From Patescibacteria group bacterium (GTDB lineage Bacteria > Patescibacteriota > Patescibacteriia > Patescibacteriales > JBAZCA01), in assembly GCA_041661405.1 (NCBI GenBank), contig JBAZUL010000005.1, positions 3,164 to 67,163 on the forward strand: 64,000 nucleotides of DNA, read 5' to 3'. The translations under genes were made by a program, and so were the position numbers. The notes under the pieces are model-generated. The model made no database searches. It saw only the letters and a program-made list of their open reading frames with translations, and had not been told where the DNA came from. This document shows, piece after piece, positions 5,167-49,101 of the stretch; position 1 is the first letter of the stretch; the number at the start of each line of letters is the position of its first letter.

Positions 5167-5243
5167 TCTTTAATAATATGCTATCACTTTACCGCCAATT
5201 TTTCAATCACCCGGGAGTCGGTGTGGCCTGTCCGGTAAAACGG

Positions 5244-31021: not shown

Positions 31022-31435
31022 TTATTTCTTCTCGTCTTTATTTAATTTATAATTAAAACTCTCAACGAGCGCGATCCAGCTGGCTTCTATAATATTTAAC
31101 GACACTCCGGCCGTTTCCCAACTGTCTTTTCCGTCGGTTGATTCAATCGCTACCCGGACTTTGGCCGCGGTGCCGTCGTTTGAAGGAAGCACCCGGACTT
31201 TGTAATCCGTCAGTTTCATCTTTTTTAAGCCCGGATAAACCCTTTCCAGAGACATTCTTAAAGCGTTATTTAAAGCGTCAACCGGCCCGACCCCGGCCGC
31301 CGTATTCCTTTCTTTATCAGCGCCAACTTTTATCCCGACCTCAGCCTCGGCCGTTGGTTCGCCCCAGTCCCGCTCTTTATGGACGCTCACCCGGTAATCC
31401 ATGAGCTCAAAGAATTTTTTTTCTTTGTTAGGCAT
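31022..31435 (-). CDS. stand-alone LeuA_dimer-type (IPMS/citramalate synthase C-terminal allosteric) domain protein
   Basis: The 137-aa sequence ...AEAEVGIKVG...AAGVGPVDALNNALR...LTDYKVRVLPSNDGTAAKVRVAIESTDGKDSWETAGVSLNIIEASWIALVESFNYKL closely matches the regulatory domain of CimA/LeuA. No catalytic barrel is present. Confidence 0.75.
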   Translation of the reverse strand: MPNKEKKFFELMDYRVSVHKERDWGEPTAEAEVGIKVGADKERNTAAGVGPVDALNNALRMSLERVYPGLKKMKLTDYKVRVLPSNDGTAAKVRVAIESTDGKDSWETAGVSLNIIEASWIALVESFNYKLNKDEKK

Positions 31436-34294: not shown

Positions 34295-34865
34295 AATTAT
34301 TAACCGCCGCGATAAAGGTGGTAAAATTGAATTTCAAATCCTGAATCCCCTCTTCGGAGAGTTCCAATCCGTAAAGTTCAGCGCAGATTTTCGGCGCGAT
34401 AACGGCCGTGGTTTCGGAAATCACTCCGTCGGCTAAATCTTTGGCCGCCGTTGCCGTATCCGGATATTCGTTTAACTCGGCTTCAGGCCATTTTCTTTTT
34501 AAATACATCCGGCATTGTCTTAGCGCCTGCTGGTGCGAAGTGATGGCGTCAATTTTTTTCAGATCCGCGCCTTTTTTTACGAGGAGATTCATCTTTATAT
34601 CAATCTCAAACATTTTTTCAATCTGAAAAACATGGCGAGCCATGGCGTGCACGGCTTCAATGACGATTCCGCCGTTGGAATTTTCTATGGGAAAAATGCC
34701 AATGTTAATTTTCCCCTTATCAAGCGACCGCAAAACGTTTTCCACCGAAGTAAGGTATTCCAGCTCGTAATTTTCCACCTTTTCCAAAGCGCAGTAATGT
34801 TTGGCGGCTTCTTCGGTAAAACTTCCCCGGTTCCCCGAAACGCCGATAATGATTTTTTCCGGCAT
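34284..34865 (-). CDS. pheA: prephenate dehydratase, catalytic PDT domain only (no ACT domain)
   Basis: 193 aa. IIIGVSGNRGSFTEEAA and the TSHQQALRQC region are typical of PDT. The length leaves no room for the regulatory ACT domain. Confidence 0.85.
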   Translation of the reverse strand: MPEKIIIGVSGNRGSFTEEAAKHYCALEKVENYELEYLTSVENVLRSLDKGKINIGIFPIENSNGGIVIEAVHAMARHVFQIEKMFEIDIKMNLLVKKGADLKKIDAITSHQQALRQCRMYLKRKWPEAELNEYPDTATAAKDLADGVISETTAVIAPKICAELYGLELSEEGIQDLKFNFTTFIAAVNNYDR

Positions 34866-34894
34866 ATTATTAAAGTTATTATTAATCTGTCTTT

Positions 34895-34923
34895 AGCTTA
34901 CCTATATTAAGCAAATTTTTCAA
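34895..34923 (-). promoter_or_regulatory. possible pheA-tyrA promoter
   Basis: On the minus strand, TTGAAA (34923-34918), a 17-nt spacer and TAAGCT (34900-34895). The -10 is weak. Confidence 0.3.
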
Positions 34924-34947
34924 CCCTCGGCCGAATTCCGCAATCCC

Positions 34948-34976
34948 TTGACACGTCTTTTGAAAATGTGTATTAT
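34948..34976 (+). promoter_or_regulatory. sigma70-like promoter of the aromatic supraoperon
   Basis: TTGACA (34948-34953), an exact 17-nt spacer and TATTAT (34971-34976). Confidence 0.6.
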
Positions 34977-35005
34977 TTAAAAAGTTGCAAAAATACATTT
35001 TTATT

Positions 35006-35086
35006 ATGAAAATCGTCCAATTGTGGTTTAGCTACTTTTACTTTTACTTTACCCTTACTACAAGGCCGGTTTTTTGCATTAGCTAA
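35006..35086 (+). CDS. aromatic-rich leader peptide (26 aa)
   Basis: Own translation gives MKIVQLWFSYFYFYFTLTTRPVFCIS. Eight of nine consecutive codons (W7-F15) are Trp, Phe or Tyr. It is below the ORF-track cutoff. Confidence 0.7.
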   Translation: MKIVQLWFSYFYFYFTLTTRPVFCIS

Positions 35087-35109
35087 CAGCATACATTAAA
35101 AAGATTAAA

Positions 35110-35136
35110 CCCGGCCCAATAGATGGCCGGTTTTTT
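35110..35136 (+). terminator. attenuator terminator downstream of the aromatic leader peptide
   Basis: CCGGCC (35111-35116) pairs with GGCCGG (35125-35130) and is followed by T6 (35131-35136). An identical GGCCGG at 35064-35069 inside the leader ORF can pair with 35111-35116 as an antiterminator. Confidence 0.65.
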
Positions 35137-35163
35137 GTTAATTCGGGACTTCTGTCCTATAAT
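35135..35163 (+). promoter_or_regulatory. possible second (internal) promoter just after the attenuator
   Basis: TTGTTA (35135-35140), a 17-nt spacer and TATAAT (35158-35163), 21 nt before the aroA' ATG. Confidence 0.35.
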
Positions 35164-35184
35164 ACTTCTAAATAGCAAAACCCT

Positions 35185-35979
35185 ATGCCAAGCAAAAAAG
35201 CACTACTGTCAAAAATCATTAACCCGCTATCCGGACGGACGGTTATTGTTCCCATGGATCACGGCGTTACCGACGGACCGATTCCGGGTCTCTTAAAAAT
35301 GGATGAGACCATTAAAAGGGTAAAGGAAGGCGGCGCTGACGCGATTATTATTCATAAAGGCATTTTTAAATTATATAAAGAAGTAATCGGCGATCTCCCG
35401 GCTCTGATCCATATTTCAGCCTCAACCGGCATGGGCGTTTCTTTAAAAAAAGTTTTAGTCGCGACCGCCAAAGAAGTTAAAAATTTAGGCGCGGCCGGAG
35501 TTTCGGTGCATCTAAATATCGGCAACCAATACGAGCCGGAAATGCTTCGCGATCTGGGGATAGTGGCGCGCGAATGCGAAGAAGAGGGTTTACCCCTGCT
35601 CGCCATGATGTACCCGAGAAACATTATTGACGGAAAAATCATCAATTATAACGACGCGGAAAAGGTCGGCCACGCCGCCCGCTTAGCCGCCGAACTGGGT
35701 GCTGATATAGTCAAAGTCCCTTACACCGGCGACGCTAAAAGTTTCGGCGAAGTGGTTCGCGGCTGTCCCATACCGGTTGTAATCGCCGGCGGAGCCAAAG
35801 GATCGGAAGAGGCAATGCTTTCTTCAATCCGGGATTGCGTCCTTGCCGGAGCGGCCGGAGTTTCAGTCGGCCGAAATGTTTTCCAATCCGAAGACGTTTC
35901 CGGCATGGTTAAAAAAGTCCGGGAAGCGGTATATGACGCCGCGGCTGTATCAGCCAACGCTAAAACATCGCGTAATTAA
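35185..35979 (+). CDS. 2-amino-3,7-dideoxy-D-threo-hept-6-ulosonate (ADH) synthase, archaeal-type AroA' (class I aldolase/DhnA family)
   Basis: 264 aa. VIVPMDHGVTDGP, IIHKG, LLAMMYPR, AARLAAELGADIVKVPYTGD, PVVIAGG and GAAGVSVGRNVFQ closely follow my recollection of M. jannaschii MJ0400. It is adjacent to aroB'. Confidence 0.8.
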   Translation: MPSKKALLSKIINPLSGRTVIVPMDHGVTDGPIPGLLKMDETIKRVKEGGADAIIIHKGIFKLYKEVIGDLPALIHISASTGMGVSLKKVLVATAKEVKNLGAAGVSVHLNIGNQYEPEMLRDLGIVARECEEEGLPLLAMMYPRNIIDGKIINYNDAEKVGHAARLAAELGADIVKVPYTGDAKSFGEVVRGCPIPVVIAGGAKGSEEAMLSSIRDCVLAGAAGVSVGRNVFQSEDVSGMVKKVREAVYDAAAVSANAKTSRN

Positions 35980-35992
35980 AATTTAAATTTTT

Positions 35993-37003
35993 ATGTCTAA
36001 AACATTCTGGTATCAGCCCCCGGTCTGGGATAAAAAACTGGTTACCGCGGCCATTGAATCGGGCTTTTCAGCAATCTACGTCCGGCCGGAAGACATAGCC
36101 CGGACTAAAGAGCTGTCTTTAGCCAAAGTCATTTCAACCGTCGCGCCAGCTGATTTTATTATCGGCGAGAATGTTGACGAAGTGATTATTAAAAACAAGG
36201 AATCAGAAAACAGGGCTGTCGCGCATCAGGGGAAAATCCCGGTTATCATCCGCAATGTTGACTGGACCATTATCCCTTTGGAAAATCTCATCTCAAAAAC
36301 TTCCAACCTGATCCAGCATGTCCGGAGTTGTGATGAAGCAAAACTGGCTTTTGAAACTCTGGAAACCGGCTGTGACGGCATACTGCTTGAAACCAGCGAC
36401 TTGAATGAAATAAAAAAAACCGCCGGCCTGATAAAAGACGCCCAAAACGAAAAGTTAAAACTTATCCAGGCTGAAATTACTTCCATAGAACAGCTCGGAT
36501 TGGGCGACCGGGTCGTTGTTGATACTTCTTCTATATTATTTCCCGGCCAGGGCATGCTTATCGGCGACTCTTCCAAAAGTATGTTTTTAGTATATAATGA
36601 AAACGTGGAGACTCCCTACTGCGATCCGCGGCCTTTCCGGGTAAACGCCGGCGGCGCCCACGCCTATATCCGCCTGCCCGGCGACAAAACCAAATATCTT
36701 GGGGAATTAAAAAGCGGCCTGAAAGCCCTTACCGTTGACCGGGAAGGCAATACCGAAGAAGTTATCATCGGCCGGGTAAAGATTGAAAAACGCCCCATGC
36801 TCATTGTCCGGGCCAAAGCCGGAGAACGGGACATGAGCCTTGTCATGCAGAACGCCGAAACCATCCGCCTAACCGGAATTGACGGACAGCCGATTTCAGT
36901 TACTAAATTAAAACCGGGCGACCGGGTGCTCGCCTTCCTGCAGGAAGAAGGCGTCGGAAGGCATTTCGGACAAAAAATTAAAGAGACAATCACTGAGAGG
37001 TAA
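35993..37003 (+). CDS. 3-dehydroquinate synthase II, archaeal-type AroB'
   Basis: 336 aa. The N-terminal W...KK.VTAAIESG pattern and the RPFRVNAGGAHAY motif are characteristic of the DHQS-II (MJ1249-like) family. Confidence 0.85.
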   Translation: MSKTFWYQPPVWDKKLVTAAIESGFSAIYVRPEDIARTKELSLAKVISTVAPADFIIGENVDEVIIKNKESENRAVAHQGKIPVIIRNVDWTIIPLENLISKTSNLIQHVRSCDEAKLAFETLETGCDGILLETSDLNEIKKTAGLIKDAQNEKLKLIQAEITSIEQLGLGDRVVVDTSSILFPGQGMLIGDSSKSMFLVYNENVETPYCDPRPFRVNAGGAHAYIRLPGDKTKYLGELKSGLKALTVDREGNTEEVIIGRVKIEKRPMLIVRAKAGERDMSLVMQNAETIRLTGIDGQPISVTKLKPGDRVLAFLQEEGVGRHFGQKIKETITER

Positions 37004-37026
37004 TACAATTTTTTTCAATAATACAT

Positions 37027-37055
37027 CGCCGCCGTTTGCTTGCTAAACGGCGGCG
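37027..37055 (+). other. perfect 11-bp GC hairpin between aroB' and ask
   Basis: CGCCGCCGTTT (37027-37037) pairs with AAACGGCGGCG (37045-37055). No U-tract follows, so a terminator role is doubtful. Confidence 0.4.
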
Positions 37056-37099
37056 AAAATGATAACTTGGAAAAATAACAGCTTCTAATTCCGTCATAT

Positions 37100-38488
37100 A
37101 TGGCAAAAAACGGAAAAATCATCGTTAATAAATTCGGCGGCGGGATCATGATTGAAAAGCATATCCCCTTTACCGATGAAAGATTAAGAGAGCAGATTAA
37201 AGCTGGCTTCCGGCCTGTTGTTGTCGTTTCGGCTTTAAAAGGCGTCACCGACCGGATCATCCATTTCCTCGCCGGACTGAAACAGGAAGTCTGCCGCAAT
37301 CAGCAAATCGGCGGCAATACCGACAAATATTCCCGCCGGCTGGTAAGCCCTTTTGTCGCCGAATTAAAGGAAGAGCATCTTAGACTTCTGGAACAAGTCG
37401 GAGTCTTAAGGGAAGAGCGGAAAAAAGCCATGGCCGACATGGATAAAATTTTCTTCCGGCTGGAAAATGATTTAAACGCCCTCCTTCATTTCGGATTCTT
37501 AAATGTTTTTGATGATAAGATCTCGGCCTATGGCGAAAAGCTGGCCGGGGTTTTTTTTACCGCCTATCTTAATTCCAAAGGCTTTACGGCCCGGACGATC
37601 ATGGCCGAAGACATTCCGATCATGACCGACGATTGTTTCCGCGACGCTAATATTGATTACAAAGTTTCGGAGAAAAACGCGAGAAAAAAAATCCTGAAAA
37701 CCGAAGGCATCCCGGTCATCCCTGGCTTTACCGGAAAAACCGCCAACGGGAATATAACAACGCTCGGCCGCGGCGGAACCGATACGACCGCCTGCTTTTT
37801 GGGAGCGGCCTTGAGGGCCGACAAGGTGATTCTTTGGAAAGACGTGGACGGCGTATTGTCCGCCGACCCGAAAATCGTTCCCTCCGCCAAAACCGTCCCT
37901 TTTATCAGCTACGCCGAAGCTGAAGAATCCGGTAAAGTCATCCATGATAAAGCTATCCAATATATAAAAATGTTTAAAACTCCGGCCGAAGTGGCGGCCA
38001 TTTCCGATCCAACGAAAAAAACTCTGGTCGGTCCGGCTAAAGATAAAAAGGAAGGCCCGAAAATCGTCAGCTTTAAAAAAGGGCTCTCGCTTCTCATTAT
38101 CACCGACGAAAAAATGAACCAACGCGGCTACCTCGCCCATGTTGCCGGGCTCCTGGCCGCCCGTAGAATAAACCTGGACACGATCAGGAATACCCGCGAT
38201 AAACTACATATTGTCGCCGAAAGCTATAACGGACCGATTGAGGAGGCGATAAAAGATTTAAAAGAAGAAATCGCCAAACTAAAAATCATTCCGGTAAATA
38301 TGGTTATTTTGATCGGCAGTCTTGACTGGAAAATGGTCAACCGCTTTAACGACGTATTAATAAAACTCTGTCCGGACGCGGAACTCGGCGCTTTTCCCTA
38401 CCGGAATTGCGTCCGGCTGGAAGCCATAGTCCGAGCCGAAGACACGGAAAAAATGGTTCGGGCTTTGCATGAGGAATTTATAAAATAA
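37100..38488 (+). CDS. ask: aspartate kinase
   Basis: 462 aa. VNKFGGGIM is a KFGG motif, GRGGTDTTA is present, and there are C-terminal ACT-like repeats. Confidence 0.9.
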   Translation: MAKNGKIIVNKFGGGIMIEKHIPFTDERLREQIKAGFRPVVVVSALKGVTDRIIHFLAGLKQEVCRNQQIGGNTDKYSRRLVSPFVAELKEEHLRLLEQVGVLREERKKAMADMDKIFFRLENDLNALLHFGFLNVFDDKISAYGEKLAGVFFTAYLNSKGFTARTIMAEDIPIMTDDCFRDANIDYKVSEKNARKKILKTEGIPVIPGFTGKTANGNITTLGRGGTDTTACFLGAALRADKVILWKDVDGVLSADPKIVPSAKTVPFISYAEAEESGKVIHDKAIQYIKMFKTPAEVAAISDPTKKTLVGPAKDKKEGPKIVSFKKGLSLLIITDEKMNQRGYLAHVAGLLAARRINLDTIRNTRDKLHIVAESYNGPIEEAIKDLKEEIAKLKIIPVNMVILIGSLDWKMVNRFNDVLIKLCPDAELGAFPYRNCVRLEAIVRAEDTEKMVRALHEEFIK

Positions 38489-38494
38489 AATTTT

Positions 38495-39583
38495 ATGAAA
38501 AAATTCAGAGTCGGCATTCTCGGCGCCACCGGCATGGTCGGCCAAAATTACATAAGACTGCTTAATGGCCACCCTTGGTTTAAAGTTACCTACGTCGCGG
38601 CATCAGCCAATTCGGCCGGAGTAACTTATTTTGATTCCATAATCGGCCGCTGGCAAATGGCGACCGCCGTCCCCAAAGATGTAAGATCTTTGGTTGTCCA
38701 GGATGTCGCTAATATTAAAGAAGCGAAAAAGCATTGCGACTTTGTTTTTTCGGCTTTTGAGATGCCGGACAAAAGCCTGGTTAAGGAAATGGAGGAAAAA
38801 TACGCGGCCGCGGGAATTCCTGTTGTGTCAAACGCCTCGGCCAACCGGTTTACCGATGACGTGCCGATGCTCATCCCGGAAATAAACCCCCATCACATAG
38901 ACATCATCCCGGTTCAGAAAAAAAACCGCGGCTGGAAAAAAGGCTTTATTGTTGTCAAACCCAACTGCAGTCTTCAAAGCTATATTACTCCGGTTTTTGC
39001 CCTCATACAGGCGGGATATCCGGTTGAAAAAATATTTATCACCACCCTGCAGGCAGTATCCGGCGCCGGCTATCCGGGCGTTCCGTCGCTTGACATGATT
39101 GGTAATGTCGTGCCTTTCATTCCGGGCGAAGAAGAAAAGACTGAAGAAGAGCCGCTAAAAATCCTTGGGGAAATAAAAGACGGAATATTCCAAAAAGCCG
39201 CCTCGCCGGCGATTTCCGCCCATTGCAACCGGGTGCCGGTGATTGACGGACATTTAGCCTGCGTCAGCCTGAAATTCGCGGAAAAAAAACCGGCTCGGGA
39301 AAAAATCCTTAAAGTCTGGAAAGAATTCAGAGCCCTGCCGCAGACCTTGAAACTGCCCATGGCGCCGGAACAGCCGATCCTCTACCGCAACGAGCATAAC
39401 CGCCCCCAGCCGAGAAAAGACCGCGACCGGGAAAAAGGCATGGCCGTTACTGTTGGGCGGCTCCGGGAATGTAAAATCTTTGATTACAAATTCGCCGCCT
39501 TAAGCCATAATACGGTTCGCGGCGCCGCCGGCGGAGGAATATTAAACGCGGAACTCTTGGTAAAGAAAGGATACATAAAATGA
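38495..39583 (+). CDS. asd: aspartate-semialdehyde dehydrogenase
   Basis: 362 aa. VGILGATGMVGQ and the active-site region KPNCSLQ are present, with a C-terminal HNTVRGAAG. Confidence 0.9.
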   Translation: MKKFRVGILGATGMVGQNYIRLLNGHPWFKVTYVAASANSAGVTYFDSIIGRWQMATAVPKDVRSLVVQDVANIKEAKKHCDFVFSAFEMPDKSLVKEMEEKYAAAGIPVVSNASANRFTDDVPMLIPEINPHHIDIIPVQKKNRGWKKGFIVVKPNCSLQSYITPVFALIQAGYPVEKIFITTLQAVSGAGYPGVPSLDMIGNVVPFIPGEEEKTEEEPLKILGEIKDGIFQKAASPAISAHCNRVPVIDGHLACVSLKFAEKKPAREKILKVWKEFRALPQTLKLPMAPEQPILYRNEHNRPQPRKDRDREKGMAVTVGRLRECKIFDYKFAALSHNTVRGAAGGGILNAELLVKKGYIK

Positions 39584-39652
39584 ATTTTTGATTTTTGATT
39601 GCCGATTTTTGGATATAAATTTTTCCAAAATCAAAAATTGAAAATCAAAAAT
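39584..39652. repeat. AT-rich imperfect palindrome built from TTTTTGA heptamers (asd-aroA spacer)
   Basis: TTTTTGATTTTTGATT...AATCAAAAATTGAAAATCAAAAA arms lie around the loop TATAAATTT. Confidence 0.7.
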
Positions 39653-39668
39653 CTTTCTCTGAAAAATT

Positions 39669-40967
39669 ATGTGTTCTTACCAAGTCCATATTTTAAAACG
39701 TCCAATAAAAAAAATAATAACTCTGCCCGGTTCCAAGAGTTTTACCAACCGCGCTCTCATCATGGCCGCATTGGCGGACGGGCGTTCCGCGCTAACTGGC
39801 GCCTCTCTATCGGATGACAGCCGGGCAATGATTTCTGCTTTGAAAAAGATTGGAATTAGAATTACCAATTCCGGAAAAAATATTACGGTTTACGGAGAAG
39901 GCGGCCGATTCCGGTTATTCAACGGAAAAATAAATGTTGGCGCGGCCGGAACCGCCGCCCGTTTTCTTCTCTCATTATGCGCCCTGGTTCCCGGAGAAAT
40001 TATTCTTGACGGCTCGGAGCGGATGAGGCAAAGGCCGATTAACGAACTGGTGAGCGCCCTGCGTAAAATCGGAGCAAAGATCCAGTACCAAAAAAAGGCC
40101 GGTTGTCTGCCGGTTAAAATCAGGGGCGAAAACTTAACCGGCAGAAAAGTAAAAATGCCGGGAAAAATATCAAGCCAATTTTTAACTTCCCTTCTTTTAA
40201 TCTCCCCGTTTTTAAAAAACGGGATTGAAATAAGCGTAATCGGCAGACAAATTTCCCGATCATACATTGATATGACTTTAGCCGGTTTAATGGAGCATGG
40301 AATTAAAGTAAAAAACCATAATTATAAAAAATACGAGATTAAGCCGGGCGCCCGCTATAAACCGGGAAAATACGAAATTGAAAGCGACGCTTCAGGCGCG
40401 AGTTATTTTTTCGCTTTAGCCGCTTTAACCGGCTCCGCGATCCGGGTAAAAAATATCTCTCCTGATTCATCCCAGGGCGACGTAAAATTCTGCGACTTGC
40501 TCCGAAGAATGGGATGCGAAGTTAAAAAAAACGCGCGCCAAAAATGGATTGAAGTCCGGGGGAAAAAACAATTGCGCGCTATAACCGCGGACATGGAAAA
40601 TATGCCGGACACGGCGCAGACTCTCGCCGTTGTCGCCGCCTTTGCCAAAGGTAAAACCAAAATCACCAGACTCTCCACGTTAAGGCACAAAGAAACCGAC
40701 CGGCTAATAGCTTTGAAAACCGAACTTTCTAAAATGGGCATAAAATCGCAAACCACGAAGGATTCCATAGTTATAGCAGGCGGCCAGCCGCGCGGAGCGA
40801 AAATTAAAACCTACGATGATCACCGCATGGCCATGGCTTTCGCCGTTGCCGGAGCGCGGATTCCGGATGTAATCATTGAAAACCCGGGCGTTGTTTCAAA
40901 GTCGTTTCCGGAGTTTTGGAAAATGCTGAAGAAGGCGGGCGTTAAAATAACCAATAAAAACAAATGA
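39669..40967 (+). CDS. aroA: 3-phosphoshikimate 1-carboxyvinyltransferase (EPSP synthase)
   Basis: 432 aa. LPGSKSFTNRALIMAAL, the LGNAGTA-like VGAAGTAARF, and the RHKETDR and DHRMAMAF motifs are present. Confidence 0.95.
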   Translation: MCSYQVHILKRPIKKIITLPGSKSFTNRALIMAALADGRSALTGASLSDDSRAMISALKKIGIRITNSGKNITVYGEGGRFRLFNGKINVGAAGTAARFLLSLCALVPGEIILDGSERMRQRPINELVSALRKIGAKIQYQKKAGCLPVKIRGENLTGRKVKMPGKISSQFLTSLLLISPFLKNGIEISVIGRQISRSYIDMTLAGLMEHGIKVKNHNYKKYEIKPGARYKPGKYEIESDASGASYFFALAALTGSAIRVKNISPDSSQGDVKFCDLLRRMGCEVKKNARQKWIEVRGKKQLRAITADMENMPDTAQTLAVVAAFAKGKTKITRLSTLRHKETDRLIALKTELSKMGIKSQTTKDSIVIAGGQPRGAKIKTYDDHRMAMAFAVAGARIPDVIIENPGVVSKSFPEFWKMLKKAGVKITNKNK

Positions 40968-42301
40968 ACATAGTTCTGATCGGCTTCATGGGTTCGGGAA
41001 AAACCAGCGTCGCGAAAATCCTGGCTAAAAGACTCGGGCGTGAAGCTATTGAAATGGACGATCTGATTTTAAAAAAGAGCCGGAGAAAAAGCATAAACGA
41101 AATCTTTGAAAAAGACGGCGAAAAAATGTTTAGGTCGCTGGAAGCGCGCGCGGCCAAAGAATTGTCTTTCGCGGATAATAAAATTATTTCCACGGGCGGC
41201 GGAATTGTCATGAATAAAAAAAACATGGCGAGCCTGAAAAAAAACGGCAAAATAATTTATTTAAAAGACAGCTTTGAAAGAATTAAACAAAGGCTTAAAA
41301 AAGACCAGACCCGTCCGCTCATGGTCAGCCGGGAAAAAGCCAAAACTCTTTTTCAAAAAAGACAGCCCCTGTATTCGCGATACGCCGATGAAATCATTGA
41401 CTGCGTCCGCGATTCTGATCTTAATCATATCAGCCGGGAAATCATTAAGCAATTAAAAACTGATATTAAAATAACTTGCTTAAGCATCGGCGACCCGATA
41501 AGACAATCGCTTTCGCCGGCCATGCATAACGCCGGCTACCGGGCTTTAAAAATCGATCATCTTTATATTTACCTCTCGGCCAGGGTTCGTCCCAAGGAAC
41601 TGAAAAACACCGTAAAAGCCTTTCGATCGCTTGGGATCCGCGGCGTATCAGTAACTATTCCGCACAAAATTGAGGTAATGAAATATTTGGATAAAATTGA
41701 CAAAATTGCCAAAGCTATCGGGGCGGTAAATACGATCGTGAATGACAACGGACGGTTAACCGGATATAATACCGACTGGCTCGGAGCGATAATTCCCCTG
41801 GAAAAAGCCGCCGGGAAAAAAGGTCTTAAAAATAAAAAGACGGCTATTATCGGCGCCGGGGGAGCGGCTCGGGCTATCGCCTACGGCGTTGCGAAAAAAG
41901 GCGCCAAGCTAAAAATCTTCGCCCGCGATTTGGTCAAGGCAAAAAAACTCGCCCGCGAATTTAAGGCTGAATCCGGCGATTTTTCGCGCCTCCATGAAGT
42001 AAGAAATTATGATATAATTATAAACGCCACTCCAATCGGCATGGCTCCGCGCGAAAAAGAATCGCCCGTGCCGGAAGAACTATTGCATAAAGGACAAATC
42101 GTTTTTGACGCGGTGCATACGCCTTATAAAACCAAACTTTTAACACAGGCCGAAAAAAAAGGCGCGAAAATTATTCCCGGGGTTGAAATGGTATTATGCC
42201 AGGGCGCGGCCCAGTTTGAATTATATACCGGAAAAAAAGCGCCGGTTAGCGCTATGAAAAAAGCTTTAACCGACTCGCGATTTTTACGCCACTTTTTCTA
42301 A
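40964..42301 (+). CDS. bifunctional shikimate kinase / shikimate 5-dehydrogenase (AroK-AroE fusion)
   Basis: The N-terminal 170 aa carry IVLIGFMGSGKTS and STGGG (AroK). The C-terminal 270 aa carry GDPIRQSLSPAMHNAGY, VTIPHK, GAVNT, GYNTDWLG and GAGGAARA (AroE). Confidence 0.9.
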   Translation: MNIVLIGFMGSGKTSVAKILAKRLGREAIEMDDLILKKSRRKSINEIFEKDGEKMFRSLEARAAKELSFADNKIISTGGGIVMNKKNMASLKKNGKIIYLKDSFERIKQRLKKDQTRPLMVSREKAKTLFQKRQPLYSRYADEIIDCVRDSDLNHISREIIKQLKTDIKITCLSIGDPIRQSLSPAMHNAGYRALKIDHLYIYLSARVRPKELKNTVKAFRSLGIRGVSVTIPHKIEVMKYLDKIDKIAKAIGAVNTIVNDNGRLTGYNTDWLGAIIPLEKAAGKKGLKNKKTAIIGAGGAARAIAYGVAKKGAKLKIFARDLVKAKKLAREFKAESGDFSRLHEVRNYDIIINATPIGMAPREKESPVPEELLHKGQIVFDAVHTPYKTKLLTQAEKKGAKIIPGVEMVLCQGAAQFELYTGKKAPVSAMKKALTDSRFLRHFF

Positions 42302-42335
42302 AAAAGTAGCAAAGTGCAAACTAATAAATACTCCT

Positions 42336-43010
42336 ATGAATCTCCGTATATGCGCGGTTGTCACCGGAAAAAACTTAAAAGAATTTCTTGCAAACCTGAA
42401 AAAAGCCCAAAAGCAAACCGATTGGGTTGAGTTAAGGGCGGATTATATAAAAAATTTCAATGTTCATGATATTGCGAAAATAAAAGCGGCGGTCAGCAAA
42501 CACGCGATATTCACCTGCCGAAAACCGGGCGAGGGAGGAAATTTCAGGAGCTCGGAAAAAGAACGGCTCGCCATCCTAAACGCCGCGCTAAAATCCGGTT
42601 TTGATTTCGTGGACATTGAACTGTCAGCCATCTCAAAAGTTAAAATTCCGGCCGCGCCAATCAGTTCCAAAATAATCTGTTCATTCCATGATTTTAATAA
42701 AACTTCGAGCCTTAGCCAGCTTAAAAAAATCGCCGAAAAAATGGAAAAAACTAAAGCTCAAGTCATTAAAATTGTCACCATGGTAAAAACCGAATCTGAC
42801 AACCAAAAACTTTTTGAACTTCTGGCCGGGAAAAAAAGCGGCATGGAAATGATTGTTTTGGGCATGGGCGAAAAAGGAAAAATCACCCGCCTTTTATCCC
42901 CGCTCAGGGGCGGCTACCTCACTTTTGCTTCAGCGAGTGTTGCCACGGCGCCTGGACAGATAAGCGTCAAAGAATTAAAATCAATATATAAAAAAATGGG
43001 ATTAAAATAA
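42336..43010 (+). CDS. aroD: type I 3-dehydroquinate dehydratase
   Basis: 224 aa. ICAVVTG...VELRADY, ...SFHDF and MVKT (Schiff-base Lys region) fit the type I DHQase pattern. Confidence 0.85.
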   Translation: MNLRICAVVTGKNLKEFLANLKKAQKQTDWVELRADYIKNFNVHDIAKIKAAVSKHAIFTCRKPGEGGNFRSSEKERLAILNAALKSGFDFVDIELSAISKVKIPAAPISSKIICSFHDFNKTSSLSQLKKIAEKMEKTKAQVIKIVTMVKTESDNQKLFELLAGKKSGMEMIVLGMGEKGKITRLLSPLRGGYLTFASASVATAPGQISVKELKSIYKKMGLK

Positions 43011-43015
43011 TCTAT

Positions 43016-44089
43016 ATGAACACATTCGGAAAACTATTCACAATCACCACTTTCGGCGAATCGCACGGATTGGGCGTAGGAGTCGTTGTTGACGGCTGTC
43101 CGGCCGGTTTAAAAATCACCGAAGCTGACATCCAAAAAGAACTTAACCGGAGAAAACCGGGACAATCAAGCATTACCACCTCCCGAAAAGAAGATGATAA
43201 AATCCGGATCATGTCCGGGGTGACCGATGGAAAAACCACCGGCGCTCCGATAATGATGCTCGCGGAAAACCGCGACGCCCGATCCGAAGATTATGGCCAG
43301 CTGAAAGAAGTTTACCGGCCGGGTCACGCGGATTTTACTTATGAGGCTAAATACGGCCACCGTGAATGGCGCGGCGGCGGACGGGCTTCGGCGCGGACCA
43401 CGCTCGCGCAAGTCGCGGCTGGCGCGATCGCTAAAAAATATTTAAAAGAAAAACTTAACGTGGAAATTCTCGGCTTTGTTGACCAGGTCGGTGAAATCAA
43501 AGCCGCTATTGATTACAACAAACTGAGTTTAAAAAAAGTTGAAGCTAACCCGGTTCGCTGTCCGGATGAAAAAATTGCCAAGGAAATGATTAAATTCATT
43601 ACCGCCTTAAAATCCGGGGGCGATTCAACCGGCGGAGCTGTTTTTGCGATTATTAAAAATGTTCCTTTAGGCCTCGGCAGTCCGGTTTTTGATAAACTGC
43701 CGGCTGACTTAGCTAAGGCGATGATGGGCATTAACGCGGCCAAAGGCTTTGAAATCGGTTCGGGATTCAGGGCGGCGGAAATGCGCGGGAGCGAACATAA
43801 TGACCGGTTTTATACTACTAAAGGCAAAGTAAGAACTAAAACTAACTTTGCCGGCGGCGTTTTAGGCGGAATTTCAACGGGCGAAGACATTTATTTCCGC
43901 GTCGCTTTTAAGCCGACTTCAACGATTGCCAAAGCGCAAGACACAATAGACCGCCGCGGCAAGCAGGTTGTCCTGAAAGCCGCCGGGCGGCACGACCCCT
44001 GTATCGTCCCCCGCGCCGTCCCCATAGTAGAAGCCATGGCGGCGCTCGTGATTATGGATCATTATTTACAATGGAAGGCGTATAAATGA
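43016..44089 (+). CDS. aroC: chorismate synthase
   Basis: 357 aa with the signatures TFGESHG, RPGHADFTY, GGGRASARTT and GRHDPC. Confidence 0.95.
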   Translation: MNTFGKLFTITTFGESHGLGVGVVVDGCPAGLKITEADIQKELNRRKPGQSSITTSRKEDDKIRIMSGVTDGKTTGAPIMMLAENRDARSEDYGQLKEVYRPGHADFTYEAKYGHREWRGGGRASARTTLAQVAAGAIAKKYLKEKLNVEILGFVDQVGEIKAAIDYNKLSLKKVEANPVRCPDEKIAKEMIKFITALKSGGDSTGGAVFAIIKNVPLGLGSPVFDKLPADLAKAMMGINAAKGFEIGSGFRAAEMRGSEHNDRFYTTKGKVRTKTNFAGGVLGGISTGEDIYFRVAFKPTSTIAKAQDTIDRRGKQVVLKAAGRHDPCIVPRAVPIVEAMAALVIMDHYLQWKAYK

Positions 44090-44099
44090 ATCTAGCCGC

Positions 44100-44128
44100 T
44101 TGACACCAATTACCCTTTTTGCTATAAA
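44100..44128 (+). promoter_or_regulatory. sigma70-like promoter for the trp T-box leader
   Basis: TTGACA (44100-44105), a 17-nt spacer and TATAAA (44123-44128), starting 11 nt after the aroC stop. Confidence 0.6.
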
Positions 44129-44134
44129 TAAAAT

Positions 44135-44420
44135 AGAACATTTACAGAAATAATATCCACAGCCAGATCCCGGTCTTTCCGGGAATGGGTCTGGCTTTTC
44201 TCCCGCTAATCCGGGAGAAGGATGGCTTTTGCATGAGTGAAAGCCCGGCTTCCTCCGTAACCAAAGGATAACTGAATTCCACGCGGACTCGTTCTGAGCC
44301 TGCCGAAGGAGTCAGTGAAAGCGTCCCGCCCGAGGCGGGAAAAAAAGGTGGCACCGCGGGATAACCTCTCGTCCTTTTATCCAAGTATTTTATTTGGGTA
44401 AAAAGATGAGAGGTTTTTTT
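44135..44420 (+). promoter_or_regulatory. T-box riboswitch leader (presumed tRNA-Trp-responsive) with terminator
   Basis: The T-box sequence AAAGGTGGCACCGCGGGA (core at 44347-44358), AGTGAAAG elements, a stem III-like CCCGCCcgaGGCGGG, and a terminator AACCTCTC (44363-44370) / GAGAGGTT (44408-44415) plus T7, directly before trpE. Confidence 0.75.
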
Positions 44421-44439
44421 ATTGCCTAACTGCAATATT

Positions 44440-45873
44440 ATGGCTTTGCCGAAAATAACCCTAAAAAACAAAAAACCGACTTATATCAAATTCGCCGAGG
44501 ATTTAGATTTCTTCGGGCTGTTCAAAAAAATTGAACAGGAGTTTGATAATTGTTTTATCCTTGAATCTCTCGGCGACGGAGGCGACCGGGCGCGTTATCA
44601 TGTCATCGGTTTTGGACCGGAAATAATTTTATCGGCTCGCGGCCATGAATTAAAAATAACCGATTGCCATGAAAATAAGGCCAACGCCAAAAAAACAAAC
44701 ACTAAAATTAAATCAAAAACTTATCCATCTAATAACCCTTATTACGCCCTGCGGGAAATTGTTCCGCGCGACATAATCTCGCGCCAATATTCCGGCGGCC
44801 TCATCGGCTATATCGCTTACGAGGGCATGAATTATTTTGAACCGGCCATTGATTTAAAACTTCATCCTGATTTTCAACAGTTTAAATTCGGGGTTTATAC
44901 CGACGGACTCGTTTACGATAAAATGACCGGCGAAGCGTCTTATTTTTATTATGACAACGACCGCTCGGCGTTAATCAGGGAAATCGCTTTCACGAAAAAA
45001 TCCAGCACCAAAACTTCCCCCGGCGCCCGCCAAAACGGAGTTAAAGTAAAATTCATCCGGGACACAAAAACCGAAAAAGCGCACGCGGCCATGGTAAAAA
45101 GGATAAAAAAAGATATCGTGGACGGAAAAATTTTCCAGTGCGTCGCCGGGTTTAAAAGCGAATTTAAGATAAGCGGCTCGGACATTTTAATTTACGAAAG
45201 GCTCCGGGAGGTCAATCCGTCGCCGCACATGTTTTACATAAAATTCGGCCGGGAAAAAGTAATCGGCGCTTCGCCCGAGCTTTTATTCCGCTTGCGCGAA
45301 GGGGAAATGGAGACTTTTCCACTGGCCGGGACAGCGGCCCGGGGAGGCAATCTCTCCGAGGACAAAAAACTGGCCCGCCAGTTATTATCCGATCCGAAAG
45401 AAATCGCCGAGCATTCCATGCTCATAGACTTGCACAGGAACGACATCGGCCGGGTGGCTAAATTCGGGACAGTTAAAGTGAAAAACGCGATGGCCATAAA
45501 AAAATTCAGCCATGTCCAGCATATCTCTTCCGAAGTGTCCGGCGTAATCAAAGAGAGCGAGGACATGTTCTCCGCCCTGGCCGCCAATTTCCCGGCCGGC
45601 ACTCTTACTGGCGCGCCGAAAATTGAGGCCATGAAAATAATCGCCCGCGAAGAAAAGGAACCGCGCGGCCCCTACGGCGGAGCCGTCGGCCATTTCGGCT
45701 TTTCGGGCGAATGCACCTTTGCCATCCCCATCCGCACGCTTTTCATCTCCGGCAATCGCGGTTTTACCCAGACTGGCGGCGGGATTGTTTATGACTCAAA
45801 ACCGGAAAATGAGTACCGGGAAATAATAAACAAGCTTGCGGCTATGAAAAAAGTTTTAAAGGAATTTAAATAA
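44440..45873 (+). CDS. trpE: anthranilate synthase component I
   Basis: The ATG at 44440 (MALPK) is preferred over the TTG at 44422. FILESL, SPELLFR, LAGTAARG and GGAVGHFGF.G..TFAIPIRT match chorismate-binding family motifs. Confidence 0.9.
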   Translation: MALPKITLKNKKPTYIKFAEDLDFFGLFKKIEQEFDNCFILESLGDGGDRARYHVIGFGPEIILSARGHELKITDCHENKANAKKTNTKIKSKTYPSNNPYYALREIVPRDIISRQYSGGLIGYIAYEGMNYFEPAIDLKLHPDFQQFKFGVYTDGLVYDKMTGEASYFYYDNDRSALIREIAFTKKSSTKTSPGARQNGVKVKFIRDTKTEKAHAAMVKRIKKDIVDGKIFQCVAGFKSEFKISGSDILIYERLREVNPSPHMFYIKFGREKVIGASPELLFRLREGEMETFPLAGTAARGGNLSEDKKLARQLLSDPKEIAEHSMLIDLHRNDIGRVAKFGTVKVKNAMAIKKFSHVQHISSEVSGVIKESEDMFSALAANFPAGTLTGAPKIEAMKIIAREEKEPRGPYGGAVGHFGFSGECTFAIPIRTLFISGNRGFTQTGGGIVYDSKPENEYREIINKLAAMKKVLKEFK

Positions 45874-45899
45874 GCCATGAACGCGGAGCGACAATCACC

Positions 45900-46502
45900 A
45901 TGAAAATTCTAATAATTGACAACTACGACTCTTTCACCTATAACCTCCATCAGCACATCGGGGAAATTTTGGCTTCAACCGGCCGGCCTTTTGAGTTAAT
46001 CGTAAAACGCAATGACGAAATATCGGCCAAAGAAATAAAAAAAGCCGGTTTTGATAAAATTGTTATTTCTCCGGGACCGGGCGATCCGGCTGATCCGGCC
46101 TATTTCGGCGTATGCGCGGATATAATTACGGATATCGGAAAGAAGACGCCGGTCTTAGGGGTTTGCCTCGGCATGCAGGGCATCGCCCATTATTTTGGCG
46201 GAAAAGTCGTTAAAGCCGGATTGCCTATGCACGGAAAAACCAGTAAAATTAAGCATAATGGAAAAGGGTTATTTAAAAACCTCCCCGAGAACCTGGAAGT
46301 CATGCGCTACCACTCACTTATTGCCGAAGAATCAACACTGCCCGATTGCCTTGAAATTACCGCACGGACGGCTGACACAGGAGAAATCATGGGGCTCGCG
46401 CATAAAAAATATCCAATAGCCGGCATCCAATTCCATCCCGAATCGTTCGCAACCGAGGGAGGAAAAATATTATTAAAGAATTTTCTTTTCAAGAGCCAAT
46501 AA
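45900..46502 (+). CDS. trpG: anthranilate synthase component II (glutamine amidotransferase)
   Basis: 200 aa. MKILIIDNYDSFTYNL, GVCLGMQ (catalytic Cys) and QFHPES. Confidence 0.9.
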   Translation: MKILIIDNYDSFTYNLHQHIGEILASTGRPFELIVKRNDEISAKEIKKAGFDKIVISPGPGDPADPAYFGVCADIITDIGKKTPVLGVCLGMQGIAHYFGGKVVKAGLPMHGKTSKIKHNGKGLFKNLPENLEVMRYHSLIAEESTLPDCLEITARTADTGEIMGLAHKKYPIAGIQFHPESFATEGGKILLKNFLFKSQ

Positions 46503-46503
46503 T

Positions 46504-47544
46504 ATGATTAACCAGCTAATTGAAAAACTGAAAAGTAAAAACGGCCTTGATAAAGAAGAAGCTTATGCTCTGCAAAACGAGATTATCGGCGGTAAAACCG
46601 GCAAGGAAAAAATAATCAAAATTTTTCAACTTTTGGATGAAAAAGGCCTTTCCGAGGAAGAACTGTCGGGAATCCTCGCGGCTACCCGAGACAATATGAT
46701 CCGGGTAAACATAAATTTTGACTGCCTGGATAACTGTGGCACCGGCGGCGACGGTTTTAATACTTTTAACATTTCCACAGTTTCAGCCGTCGTTCTGGCC
46801 GCCGCCGGCATTCCGGTCGCGAAGCACGGCAACCGGGCGGCGACGAGCAAATGCGGCTCGGCTGATGTCCTTGAAAAACTCGGAATAAAAATTAACCTTA
46901 ACGCAGGGCAGGCGAAAATCTGCCTGGAAAAATCCGGCATAGTATTTATGTTCGCCCCGAATTTTCACCCGGCTTTAAAGTTTGTCAAAGAAGCGCGGTC
47001 AGAATATGGCAAAAAAACCTACTTTAATATCCTCGGGCCGATGCTAAATCCGGCCGGCGCCTCGCATCAGCTTATCGGAGTGGCTGACGCCGGAAAAATA
47101 AATTTGATTGGCAAAGCGCTTATCGCCGCCGGATCAAAAAGAGCGATAATCGTCCGCGGCGAAGAAGGATTGGATGAGATTAGCGTTGAAAATGATACGC
47201 TGATCAGCGATTTTAAAGCTGGTCCTGAATTAAATAGCGCGTCCGCTTTTGAGTTCAACCAATATAAAATTAACCCCTCCGATTTCGGCCTGAACGCCCA
47301 TAAACTGGAAGAAATTAAAGGAGGAGACGCTGATGAAAGCGCGAAAATATTTTTAGATATTTTAAAAAATAAAGCTACGGAAGACCAAACTGACGCCGTG
47401 CTGTTAAACGCTTCCGCCGGTATGCTCGCGTTCGGCCGGGTAAAAGATTTAAAGGAAGGAATCGGGCTGGCCAGGGAAATAATCACTTCGGGCAAAGCCT
47501 TGAGAAAACTGGAAAAATTCATAAAAACATCAAACAGCTTATGA
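46504..47544 (+). CDS. trpD: anthranilate phosphoribosyltransferase
   Basis: 346 aa. CGTGGDGFNTFNIST, KHGNRA.TSK.GSADVLE and NILGPMLNP. Confidence 0.9.
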   Translation: MINQLIEKLKSKNGLDKEEAYALQNEIIGGKTGKEKIIKIFQLLDEKGLSEEELSGILAATRDNMIRVNINFDCLDNCGTGGDGFNTFNISTVSAVVLAAAGIPVAKHGNRAATSKCGSADVLEKLGIKINLNAGQAKICLEKSGIVFMFAPNFHPALKFVKEARSEYGKKTYFNILGPMLNPAGASHQLIGVADAGKINLIGKALIAAGSKRAIIVRGEEGLDEISVENDTLISDFKAGPELNSASAFEFNQYKINPSDFGLNAHKLEEIKGGDADESAKIFLDILKNKATEDQTDAVLLNASAGMLAFGRVKDLKEGIGLAREIITSGKALRKLEKFIKTSNSL

Positions 47545-48341
47545 ATACAACCTACCGAAAAACCAAAACGATTTTAGATAAAATCTGCGATAACAAAGTT
47601 TTGGAAGTGGAAAAAAGGATGAACGCGGACACCCTTGAGGTTCTTAAAGAAAAAATTAAAACTAATGGTTTTGAAAAACGGGATTTTTACGCGGCGCTTG
47701 CCAATCCCGGCCTTTCGCTGATTGCTGAAATTAAATTTTCCTCCCCTTCGGCCGAAGGCCGGATTTTTAGCTCCGTTAAACCGGAAGAAATAGTAAAAAC
47801 TTACGAAAAACACGGAGCCAGGGCAATATCCGTTTTAACCGATGAAAAATTTTTTCTTGGCAAGCTTGAATTTATTTCCCGGGTCAGGGCGGCCTGCAAC
47901 CTGCCGATTCTAAGGAAAGATTTTATCATTCATCCTTACCAGCTTTACGAGGCCAAAGCTTGCGGCGCCGACGCGGTTCTTTTGATAGCCTCAATCCTGG
48001 AAAAAGCGCGATTAAAGGAACTATATAGTCTGGCCGGCGAATTAGGATTGGATGTATTAATGGAAATCCATGACGCGCATGAACTTAAAACAGCTCTGGA
48101 ACGCGCCCCAAAAATAATCGGCATCAATAACCGGGATTTAAAAACCATGAAAATAGATTTAAATACATTTTCCCGATTATCAAAGCTTATTCCGGCGAAC
48201 ATAATCAAAGTCGCTGAATCCGGAATTAAAACCCGCGAAAACGCTGAACAAATGAGAAAATCCGGAGCCGATGCCATCCTTGTCGGCGCAACGCTCATGC
48301 AAGCGAAAGACATCGGAAAAATGATTGACACGCTAATATGA
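47541..48341 (+). CDS. trpC: indole-3-glycerol phosphate synthase
   Basis: 266 aa. IAEIKFSSPS, ISVLTDEKFF.G, LRKDFI and INNRDL.T motifs. It overlaps trpD by 4 nt. Confidence 0.9.
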   Translation: MNTTYRKTKTILDKICDNKVLEVEKRMNADTLEVLKEKIKTNGFEKRDFYAALANPGLSLIAEIKFSSPSAEGRIFSSVKPEEIVKTYEKHGARAISVLTDEKFFLGKLEFISRVRAACNLPILRKDFIIHPYQLYEAKACGADAVLLIASILEKARLKELYSLAGELGLDVLMEIHDAHELKTALERAPKIIGINNRDLKTMKIDLNTFSRLSKLIPANIIKVAESGIKTRENAEQMRKSGADAILVGATLMQAKDIGKMIDTLI

Positions 48342-49075
48342 AAATCAAGTTCTGCGGAATAACCAATATAGAAGACGCGAAAAACGCCATTAATCTGGGT
48401 GCTGATTATCTTGGGTTTATTATTGATTTTCCTCAAAGCCCGAGAAGCATAACCCTAGAACAGTTTATGGCATTATCCGCAAAAGTACAAAATTGCGACT
48501 CTGGAATACTGTCTGAGGCTAACCAGATTCCAAATTCCCAGCCTCGCCGGCAGGCAGGCAAATTCCAAATTCCAAAAATCGTTGCCGTCACTGTCGACAT
48601 GGCTGAAAACAAACTAAATAAATTTCTTGACTCTAACCTGATAGACATTCTCCAGTTTCATGGCAATGAAACCCCGGAATTATGCGGACGTTTTAAAAAC
48701 AGGGCGGAAGTTTGGCGATTATTTAAAATCAGTCCTGACGATAATTTAGAAAAAACTATATCGGATCTTAAAAGATTTAAAGGAAAAATTGACCGGTTTT
48801 TAATTGACTCCGCGAGCGCTGACGATAAAGCCAAAGGCGCGGCTAAAAAATTTGATAATTTTTCCCTGTTCAAAAATTTTGAACAGGCGGGTTATCCTCT
48901 TGTACTCGCTGGCGGAATCAACCCGGATAATGTAAAATTATATATAGAAAAATTAAACCCGGAAATAATTGATGTTGCGAGCGGAATTGAAGATCGCCCG
49001 GGGAAAAAAAGTTTAAAAAAAATGAAAGAATTAATTAAAATAGTAAATAAATACAACCGTAAAAAAGCTAATTAA
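48338..49075 (+). CDS. trpF: phosphoribosylanthranilate isomerase carrying an in-frame insertion of about 29 aa
   Basis: MKIKFCGIT, GADYLGFI...SPR, LQFHGNE, LAGGINPDNV and DVASGIE are present. The insert QNCDSGILSEANQIPNSQPRRQAGKFQIP (48488-48574) has no counterpart in canonical PRAI as I recall it. Confidence 0.85.
   Translation: MKIKFCGITNIEDAKNAINLGADYLGFIIDFPQSPRSITLEQFMALSAKVQNCDSGILSEANQIPNSQPRRQAGKFQIPKIVAVTVDMAENKLNKFLDSNLIDILQFHGNETPELCGRFKNRAEVWRLFKISPDDNLEKTISDLKRFKGKIDRFLIDSASADDKAKGAAKKFDNFSLFKNFEQAGYPLVLAGGINPDNVKLYIEKLNPEIIDVASGIEDRPGKKSLKKMKELIKIVNKYNRKKAN
48488..48574. repeat. word-array plus GC-hairpin repeat element inserted in-frame in trpF
   Basis: ATTCCAAATTCC (48527-48538) and AATTCCAAATTCC (48561-48573) flank GCCTCGCCggcaGGCAGGC. 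The motif GGCAGGCAA(A/T)TTCCAA(A)TTCC also occurs at 21929-21948 in the rplU leader. Confidence 0.7.
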
Positions 49076-49101
49076 AAATCCGCGTTATTCGCGTCATTAT
49101 T

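Follow-up and report, generated by a model that had tools for sequence, protein, structure and literature searches.

What decides, in a member of the Patescibacteria, whether the operon of the common aromatic pathway is transcribed? The question is raised by contig JBAZUL010000005.1 of assembly GCA_041661405.1 (Patescibacteria group bacterium), where a short open reading frame (ORF) rich in aromatic codons and a set of mutually exclusive RNA pairings stand between a promoter and the first gene of this operon. The analysed stretch comprises 64,000 nucleotides (nt) of the contig (positions 3,164 to 67,163) and is called the window below; coordinates count from its first letter, and features lie on its forward strand unless stated otherwise. 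According to the sequence elements, their conservation and co-variation in relatives, and their spacing, all of which were observed directly, the element is very probably a ribosome-mediated (leader-peptide) transcription attenuator. The kinetic competition between its hairpins and its response to the charging of transfer RNA (tRNA) are what we infer from these features.

The regulated operon (35185-44089, NCBIfam annotation) encodes 2-amino-3,7-dideoxy-D-threo-hept-6-ulosonate (ADH) synthase, which is the first gene (35185-35979, also by NCBIfam), 3-dehydroquinate (DHQ) synthase II, aspartate kinase (ask), aspartate-semialdehyde dehydrogenase (asd), aroA, an aroK-aroE fusion, aroD, and aroC, which ends at 44089. 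Their product is chorismate, from which precisely the amino acids in the codon run of the leader derive.

Leader region in the window

The leader begins with a sigma-70-type promoter, TTGACA-17-TATTAT (34948-34976), that matches 11 of the 12 consensus bases. The leader transcript would start near 34983, ~22 nt upstream of a leader ORF at 35006-35086, which consists of 26 sense codons and TAA (ATG at 35006, TAA at 35084-35086) and encodes MKIVQLWFSYFYFYFTLTTRPVFCIS. Codons 7-15 (35024-35050) form the putative regulatory run TGG TTT AGC TAC TTT TAC TTT TAC TTT, i.e., WFSYFYFYF, with aromatic residues at 8 of 9 codons. Among the 87,609 stop-free stretches of nine codons in all six frames of the window, this run alone has eight aromatic codons, while at least seven are found in five stretches, two of which overlap the run. 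The run is beyond chance and is not an effect of composition. An antisense ORF at 34973-35092 (39 amino acids), whose KVKVKV mirrors YFYFYF, was considered as a candidate and rejected, being missing or interrupted in most relatives.

RNA segments and folding

Four RNA segments can be distinguished. Segment 1 (35008-35030), the start-proximal part of the ORF, pairs with segment 2, its partner in the minimum-free-energy fold being 35055-35075, and is predicted to serve as a pause or sequestering hairpin when the ribosome is absent. The related loci L001, L008, and L014 keep its equivalent, the GAAAAUCGGCC / GGCCGGUUUUU pairing; L005 keeps part of it, and L010 has a similar one. Segment 2 (AGGCCGGUUUUUUG, 35063-35076), the 5′ strand of the antiterminator, lies inside the ORF at codons 20-24, contains GGCCGG at 35064-35069, and begins 15 nt downstream of the first base of the final aromatic codon. 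Segment 3 (35100-35116) is common to antiterminator and terminator and is composed of a core CCGGCC (35111-35116) and an A-rich part (35100-35106); its six core bases pair with segment 2 or with segment 4. The latter (35125-35136) contains a second GGCCGG (35125-35130), followed by T6 (35131-35136), and was reported as a terminator-like site by the terminator scan.

Segments 3 and 4 form an intrinsic terminator with six G-C pairs, an 8-nt loop, and a folding energy of −12.0 kcal/mol. As for the competing duplex, segment 2 pairs with 35110-35116 at −12.8 kcal/mol, a value equalled or beaten in only 1 of 300 shuffles of the intervening sequence. The two GGCCGG copies belong to a 13-nt direct repeat, GGCCGGTTTTTTG.

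A preliminary description of this stretch had already listed the promoter, the 26-codon ORF, the run with 8 aromatic residues in 9, the GGCCGG, CCGGCC, and GGCCGG elements, and T6, and all of them were found again at the same positions. It had also described the attenuator as built of three segments. Those three are indeed present; segment 1, however, turns the arrangement into the classical four-segment layout.

Leaders in relatives

Related loci were collected with an ADH synthase search of genome and metagenome contigs, together with contigs encoding 53-75% identical homologues. They belong to metagenome-assembled genomes (MAGs) labelled as Patescibacteria, Jacksonbacteria, Moranbacteria, Pacebacteria, Roizmanbacteria, and, in one case, Gammaproteobacteria, with a Spirochaetes MAG as the outgroup. 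Conservation in relatives, suggested earlier as a check, is borne out: the same leader layout stands before the orthologous operon in 16 distinct leaders on Patescibacteria contigs, including those labelled Jacksonbacteria, Moranbacteria, and Roizmanbacteria. A short aromatic ORF starting with ATG is found wherever ADH synthase heads the operon and upstream sequence is available. All 16 leaders keep a TTGAC-type promoter, an ATG-initiated ORF with a Phe/Tyr-rich run, and a terminator, as well as a segment complementary to the 5′ arm of that terminator, at a fixed spacing from the last aromatic codon. Outside the promoter, no nucleotide conservation is seen across the 16 leaders.

The leader ORFs of relatives are 17-33 codons long, and their aromatic runs are diverse. 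Examples are WFSYFYFYF, WFFSFYFF, WFSLYYF, FKYLYFEFVFF, and FFSFFVFYYFF; further runs read YFNYFGF, FYFYF, FYFTFNYFYFYFY, YYFFYFFF, and WFRFVYLF. The complete peptides are MKTVQLWFSYFYFYFNLTPRPVFCIS (L005), MKFGQIWFSYFYFYFTLKTRPVFCINQ (L001), MKFGQIWFSYFYFYFNLIKRPAFCRIN (L008), MKIGQILFSYFYFYFNLNPRPVFCIN (L014), MEKSRQNTSWFFSFYFFTG (L002), MENIRSTSWFFSFYFFTEF (L010), MKLISNTIWFSLYYFLQPTAGSEY (L003), MINKFKYLYFEFVFFSSL (L009), MNSIKTDKKIVLNIWENLFFSFFVFYYFFNFTI (L015), MKKICLNYFNYFGFKLQNRRFFCNRS (L016), MQKFYFTFNYFYFYFYASKRRGIC (L019), MKNLFQIYYFFYFFFNRCSSEIFCIKFN (L021), and MNRINNKIWFRFVYLFSRP (L022), while L018 has two in tandem, MKNLAIKFYFYFTRQCGG and MGIKSKSISFYFYFYPE. Phe and Tyr are present in every leader. 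A single Trp heads the run in 9 of the 16 and is missing in the other 7; in L014, its codon TGG is replaced by TTG (Leu). Thus, although the window has all three aromatic residues in its leader, as previously noted, this does not hold for the family, and the core signal is Phe/Tyr because the Trp codon is found in only about half of the relatives. Within the close group, this TGG to TTG change is the only addition to synonymous changes (TAC/TAT and TTT/TTC) in the run.

L014 and L008 have the 11/12 promoter at an unchanged distance from the leader ORF, and a TTGAC(A/G) −35 box is readable upstream of the leader in L001, L002, L003, L005, L009, L010, L015, L016, and L019. The Spirochaetes homologue (53% identity), the one homologue from outside the candidate phyla radiation (CPR) that was examined, has no leader and an ordinary Shine-Dalgarno start. 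In L017 (labelled Pacebacteria), an aroA-aroC fusion precedes ADH synthase, which lies in the middle of the operon. The 106 nt that can be read upstream of the fusion show no leader, and this locus is uninformative.

Several loci show peculiarities of their own. The tandem leaders of L018 (labelled Roizmanbacteria), at 2079-2185 and 2359-2482, each have their own antiterminator and terminator; a palindromic repeat-like insert lies between them, and fragments of an IS1595-family transposase are found just upstream. GC-rich palindromic repeat-like inserts between the terminator and the first gene (L003, 3790-3990; L018, 2190-2340) add ~200 nt to the leader and leave the attenuator undisturbed. 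Locus L002 (CAZHCQ010000012.1) is binned as 'uncultured Gammaproteobacteria', carries a CPR-type operon with a leader that hardly differs from those of L010 and L020, and is probably mis-binned. Finally, a gene of the Trp-repressor family (PF01371) is located on the reverse strand of L022 (685-969), ~1 kb upstream of the leader and operon, which hints at an additional protein regulator in that lineage.

Covariation of the proposed switch

The scripted analysis covers 14 leaders; those of L021 and L022 were found later, and reading their sequences revealed the same three segments. According to per-locus folding, a terminator hairpin with a T-run follows all 14 leaders, and in all 14 the 5′ arm of the terminator (segment 3) is complementary to a segment just past the aromatic run. 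The resulting 2:3 duplex was equalled by shuffled intervening sequence only 0-6 times in 300 per locus. The shared strand occurs with seven different cores (CCGGCC, GCCGATT, CCGATCC, GACCTCT, GCCTC, ATCTCC, and CCCCGC), and each of them is matched by both of its changed partners.

An independent view of these pairings was obtained with RNAalifold, which was applied to a plain MAFFT alignment of 16 modules fitted to no structure. The consensus it reports is the antiterminator (segments 2:3), with compensatory double changes in 4 of 6 pairs. On this alignment, 84% of the antiterminator cells are paired, and the covariation score is 0.474 versus 0.256 for shuffles, none of which reached the observed value (0 of 500). 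The covariation values collapse when the partner column is slid by 1-3 positions.

Spacing and ribosome position

Counted from the first base of the last aromatic codon, segment 2 begins after a distance of 9-17 nt in all 14 leaders, in most cases 14-16 nt, while the stop codon is located anywhere from 24 nt after to 5 nt before the beginning of that segment. The first distance fits the expected ribosome footprint: a ribosome stalled on the run would just clear segment 2. Ribosome-mask folds were computed for transcripts cut before segment 4, the mask extending from −15 to +12 nt relative to the A site. When it is placed on the last aromatic codon, segment 3 pairs with segment 2 in all 14 leaders, L015 contributing only 3 of its 8 segment 3 bases. 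Moved to the stop codon, the mask removes the antiterminator in 8 of the 14.

The earlier suggestion of an attenuator of the pheL/trpL kind with mutually exclusive hairpins is thus supported by the conservation, co-variation, and spacing found in the 16 leaders.

Proposed mechanism

A shortage of charged tRNA-Phe, tRNA-Tyr or, in this lineage, tRNA-Trp would stall the ribosome within 35024-35050, where it would cover or separate segment 1 and leave segment 2 exposed. Segment 2 would capture segment 3 once the latter is made, so that the 3:4 terminator is pre-empted and readthrough into ADH synthase and all following genes up to aroC becomes possible. With charged aromatic tRNAs, the ribosome would proceed over segment 2 toward the stop codon, or segments 1 and 2 would re-pair after its release. 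Segment 3 could then pair with segment 4, transcription would end at T6, and the operon would remain low. Because any of the three amino acids can stall the ribosome, the leader would work as an OR gate on the shared pathway, and the Trp branch would be gated a second time by a T-box-like leader described below.

Several observations weigh against this reading. To begin with, translation of the leader ORF and termination at T6 are both deduced from sequence. The ORF is not preceded by a Shine-Dalgarno sequence, although this is normal for the genome, since even by a loose definition only 4 of the 34 window genes have one and A/T-rich sequence precedes the starts instead. The terminator is short (6 bp), and in the MAFFT alignment only 61% of its helix cells are paired, since loops of variable length shift segment 4 out of register. 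The folding energy of the whole leader is unexceptional (z-score −0.62); such unremarkable stability is expected for a short AU-rich switch, and for this reason the significance of the element rests on conservation.

The remaining two difficulties concern the OFF state. First, the terminator forms in every full-length equilibrium fold, the ribosome-masked ones included. Such folds cannot separate ON from OFF, which is why the cut transcripts were used instead, and the choice between the two states must therefore be kinetic. Second, segment 2 of the window lineage and of L016 starts 20-24 nt before the stop codon (21 nt in the window). A ribosome parked there masks only the 3′ edge of segment 2 and the U-run extension, and the stop-codon mask still allows 5 of 6 pairs. 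With masking this partial, the OFF state must rest on transit timing, on the lost U-run/A-run extension, or on 1:2 re-pairing. The ribosome may cover segment 2 while it translates codons 16-26, or segment 2 may be taken back by segment 1 (35008-35030).

Alternative explanations

Could the switch be real but set by a trans-acting factor or ligand, such as a TRAP-like protein, an uncharged tRNA, or a small molecule, with the ORF being incidental? RNA-based sensing does exist in this genome, as the T-box-like element 9 kb downstream suggests, and the Trp-repressor-family gene near the operon in L022 would fit a protein regulator; neither has a direct bearing on the leader. In contrast, the leader itself contains neither a T-box core nor an array of (G/U)AG repeats, and it matches no Rfam family at threshold. 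At gathering thresholds, the only Rfam hits in the whole window are three tRNAs, and a permissive scan of 34850-35250 gave only chance-level matches (at most 18 bits). Among the best of these, at ~15 bits, are the leader-peptide families themselves: Phe_leader (RF01859) with 15.1 bits against a gathering threshold of 55 (E-value 7.2 for the 401-nt search), Leu_leader with 14.6 bits (threshold 50), and Thr_leader with 13.1 bits (threshold 55), while Trp_leader is not listed even at E-values up to 10. Moreover, a protein or ligand site would not impose what is conserved, namely the ATG, the open frame, the synonymously varying aromatic codons, and the spacing from these codons to segment 2. Control by such a factor is therefore very unlikely.

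A second possibility is that the peptide acts like TnaC, i.e., that it arrests the ribosome on sensing free aromatic amino acids rather than tRNA charging. The peptides of the window group keep W7 ... R20 P21 (Trp, ~14 residues, Arg-Pro), which loosely recalls the W12 ... P24 spacing of TnaC. However, their RPVFC tail is encoded by segment 2 (AGG CCG GUU UUU UGC), so its conservation is explained by RNA pairing. The tail is absent in other leader groups, which end in ...FFTG, ...QPTAGSEY, or ...FFSSL, and Trp is missing in 7 of the 16 leaders. In addition, the logic would be inverted, because a sensor of free amino acids would activate a biosynthetic operon at times of ample product, and we consider an arrest peptide extremely improbable here.

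Finally, a functional micropeptide, or a chance ORF beside an ordinary leaky terminator, in either case with no regulatory coupling, is hardly credible: the peptide is hydrophobic and aromatic-rich, and small membrane peptides exist, but outside the aromatic run it is not conserved between groups and varies in length from 17 to 33 residues, and chance can explain neither an 8/9 aromatic run found once in 87,609 windows nor its recurrence before the same operon in 16 lineages at a fixed spacing to a co-varying antiterminator. A leader-peptide attenuator thus remains the preferred reading of the element.

Operon and pathway

DAHP synthase is not the entry enzyme here. NCBIfam identifies ADH synthase and DHQ synthase II together with ask and asd; the common pathway is entered by the archaeal-type ADH-synthase/DHQ-synthase-II route. 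The ask and asd genes (37100-39583) lie inside the aromatic operon, right after ADH synthase and DHQ synthase II, because this route uses aspartate semialdehyde as a substrate, which the two enzymes presumably supply. The head of the operon (ADH synthase, DHQ synthase II, ask, asd) has the same order in L014-L016 and L018-L022.

As for the terminal branches, prephenate dehydratase (pheA) and prephenate dehydrogenase-chorismate mutase (tyrA) are transcribed divergently, from 34865 to 33266, and therefore lie outside the reach of the attenuator. The leader does stand where an attenuator of a whole shikimate/trp supraoperon, as first proposed, would stand. Its reach, however, is narrower than that name implies, given the divergent pheA and tyrA and the separate promoter and T-box-like leader of the trp genes.

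Fused genes are found in several of these operons. In the window, shikimate kinase is fused to shikimate dehydrogenase (40964-42301); in L017, aroA and aroC form a 788-amino-acid fusion (107-2473); and in L018, ask and asd form one of 678 amino acids (4300-5762). On the reverse strand of the window, a 137-amino-acid ORF (31022-31435) matches only residues 389-522 of a 526-residue citramalate synthase model and is either a truncated gene or a stand-alone C-terminal regulatory domain.

A second promoter-like site, TTGTTA-17-TATAAT (35135-35163), had been pointed out right after the terminator. It is present in the window with 10 of 12 consensus bases but is not conserved: it recurs only in L005, a 96%-identical relative, is absent in L001 (where 8 nt separate the T-run from the ATG), has no match in L008, and is represented in L014 only by a weak 9/12 match at a different position. 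Promoter-like matches of at least 9/12 are frequent in this region, with 12 found versus 3.9 expected from shuffles. The site was therefore rejected as a part of the conserved device, and it may add lineage-specific basal expression.

A probable second checkpoint before trpE

The trp genes are preceded by a promoter and a T-box-like leader of their own (44100-44421). The promoter, identified by reading the sequence, is the near-consensus TTGACA-17-TATAAA (44100-44128). It is followed by a short Stem I (44161-44196), with UGG at 44186-44188 in its 3′ internal loop, by the T-box core GGUGGCACCGCG (44347-44358) within an antiterminator/terminator pair, and by a long terminator hairpin with T7 that ends near 44421. 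In the core and its position within this pair, as well as in the UGG of the Stem I internal loop, the leader resembles the T-box family (RF00230). Its Rfam score for that family is 45.1 bits (E-value 6.8e-9 for the stretch searched), below the gathering threshold of 93, as the model has a much longer Stem I region. The leader is highly structured, with a fold z-score of −5.8. The UGGC of the core would pair with a G73 discriminator, which we take to fit tRNA-Trp.

Downstream, NCBIfam assigns trpE, trpG, trpD, trpC, trpF, and trpB, which are followed by a seventh ORF (50346-51146), so that the block covers 44440-51146. By its position, the seventh ORF would be trpA, and trpE probably starts at ATG 44440 and not at TTG 44422. 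The gap between aroC and trpE is ~350 nt long (44089-44440), and the scan found no terminator between aroC and the trp promoter. A transcript extended beyond the first attenuator can therefore continue and would then meet the Trp-specific checkpoint.

Comparison with known systems

The closest parallels in design are pheL-pheA, pheM-pheST, and trpL of Escherichia coli, which share the promoter, the ORF with its consecutive codons for the end-product amino acid, the mutually exclusive 2:3 and 3:4 hairpins, and the U-tract; like pheL and trpL, the window lineage also has a start-proximal segment 1. In trpL, too, the terminator is more stable at equilibrium and the choice is kinetic. The E. coli leaders are, however, non-homologous to those described here. 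Their runs specify a single amino acid, in contrast to Phe and Tyr with or without Trp, and they control a terminal branch or a synthetase, whereas the present ones stand before the common chorismate pathway in a Patescibacteria host that does without Shine-Dalgarno sequences.

A mixed-aromatic leader before the common pathway had been called unusual, but a mixed Phe/Tyr precedent exists. According to PMC11802643, which cites Neshat et al. 2014, the aroR leader of Corynebacterium glutamicum precedes the aroF operon (3-deoxy-D-arabinoheptulosonate 7-phosphate, DAHP, synthase), contains Phe-Tyr-Phe, and is reported to respond to Phe and not to Tyr. Compared by description, aroR is likewise a leader-peptide attenuator that combines Phe with Tyr codons and stands at the entry to the common pathway, ahead of its first enzyme. 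It differs in having a three-codon motif instead of the 5-13 aromatic codons seen here, which often include a leading Trp, in having aroF rather than ADH synthase downstream, and in belonging to another phylum.

A further candidate is the uORFC-13-1 motif (PMC8632094), a predicted upstream ORF whose U run codes for at least one Phe, located by an intrinsic terminator upstream of aroF in Acholeplasma and environmental sequences. Compared by description only, it shares a Phe-codon upstream ORF and an intrinsic terminator before the entry enzyme of the shikimate pathway, and it differs in that this enzyme is DAHP synthase and the host group is another one.

Leaders that respond to several amino acids are known from enterobacteria. 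In ilvL (Leu/Val/Ile) and thrL (Thr/Ile), a shortage of any one end product relieves termination. As in the present family, codons for the different end products of one pathway are combined in a single leader; the amino acids and the pathway, however, are different, and the sequences are unrelated.

Implications

Patescibacteria are usually described as reduced symbionts without amino-acid biosynthesis, and to our knowledge almost nothing is known of their gene regulation. In the library searched, no paper on leader-peptide attenuation in Patescibacteria was found, none of the papers listed for Patescibacteria/CPR mentions T-boxes, and a 2024 review mentions riboswitches only as prospective tools. 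We lean, with some reserve, towards the view that no family of leader-peptide attenuators has been described in Patescibacteria (CPR) before this one. The family extends across several candidate classes, and in it a Phe/Tyr(/Trp) OR gate on the archaeal-type ADH/DHQ-synthase-II pathway would be layered with a short-Stem-I tRNA-Trp T-box on the trp branch.

The mechanism itself is a textbook one, and mixed aromatic codons before the common pathway have a precedent in aroR, so the gain is in breadth and not in a new principle. The leaders form a new and well-supported family within a classical type of regulation; both the host group and the version of the pathway that they precede are unusual. 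Rfam does not contain the family, and the 16 co-varying examples are enough to seed a model. As a natural control element responsive to amino acids, it could also be tried in genetic tools for Patescibacteria.

As for the organism, the locus represents a lineage that keeps a complete aromatic pathway with regulation predicted at two levels and its own supply of aspartate semialdehyde. The conserved attenuator is, in addition, indirect evidence that translation closely follows RNA polymerase in these organisms. If the proposed mechanism is true, it would mean that transcription and translation are tightly coupled in ultra-small bacteria that do without Shine-Dalgarno sequences.

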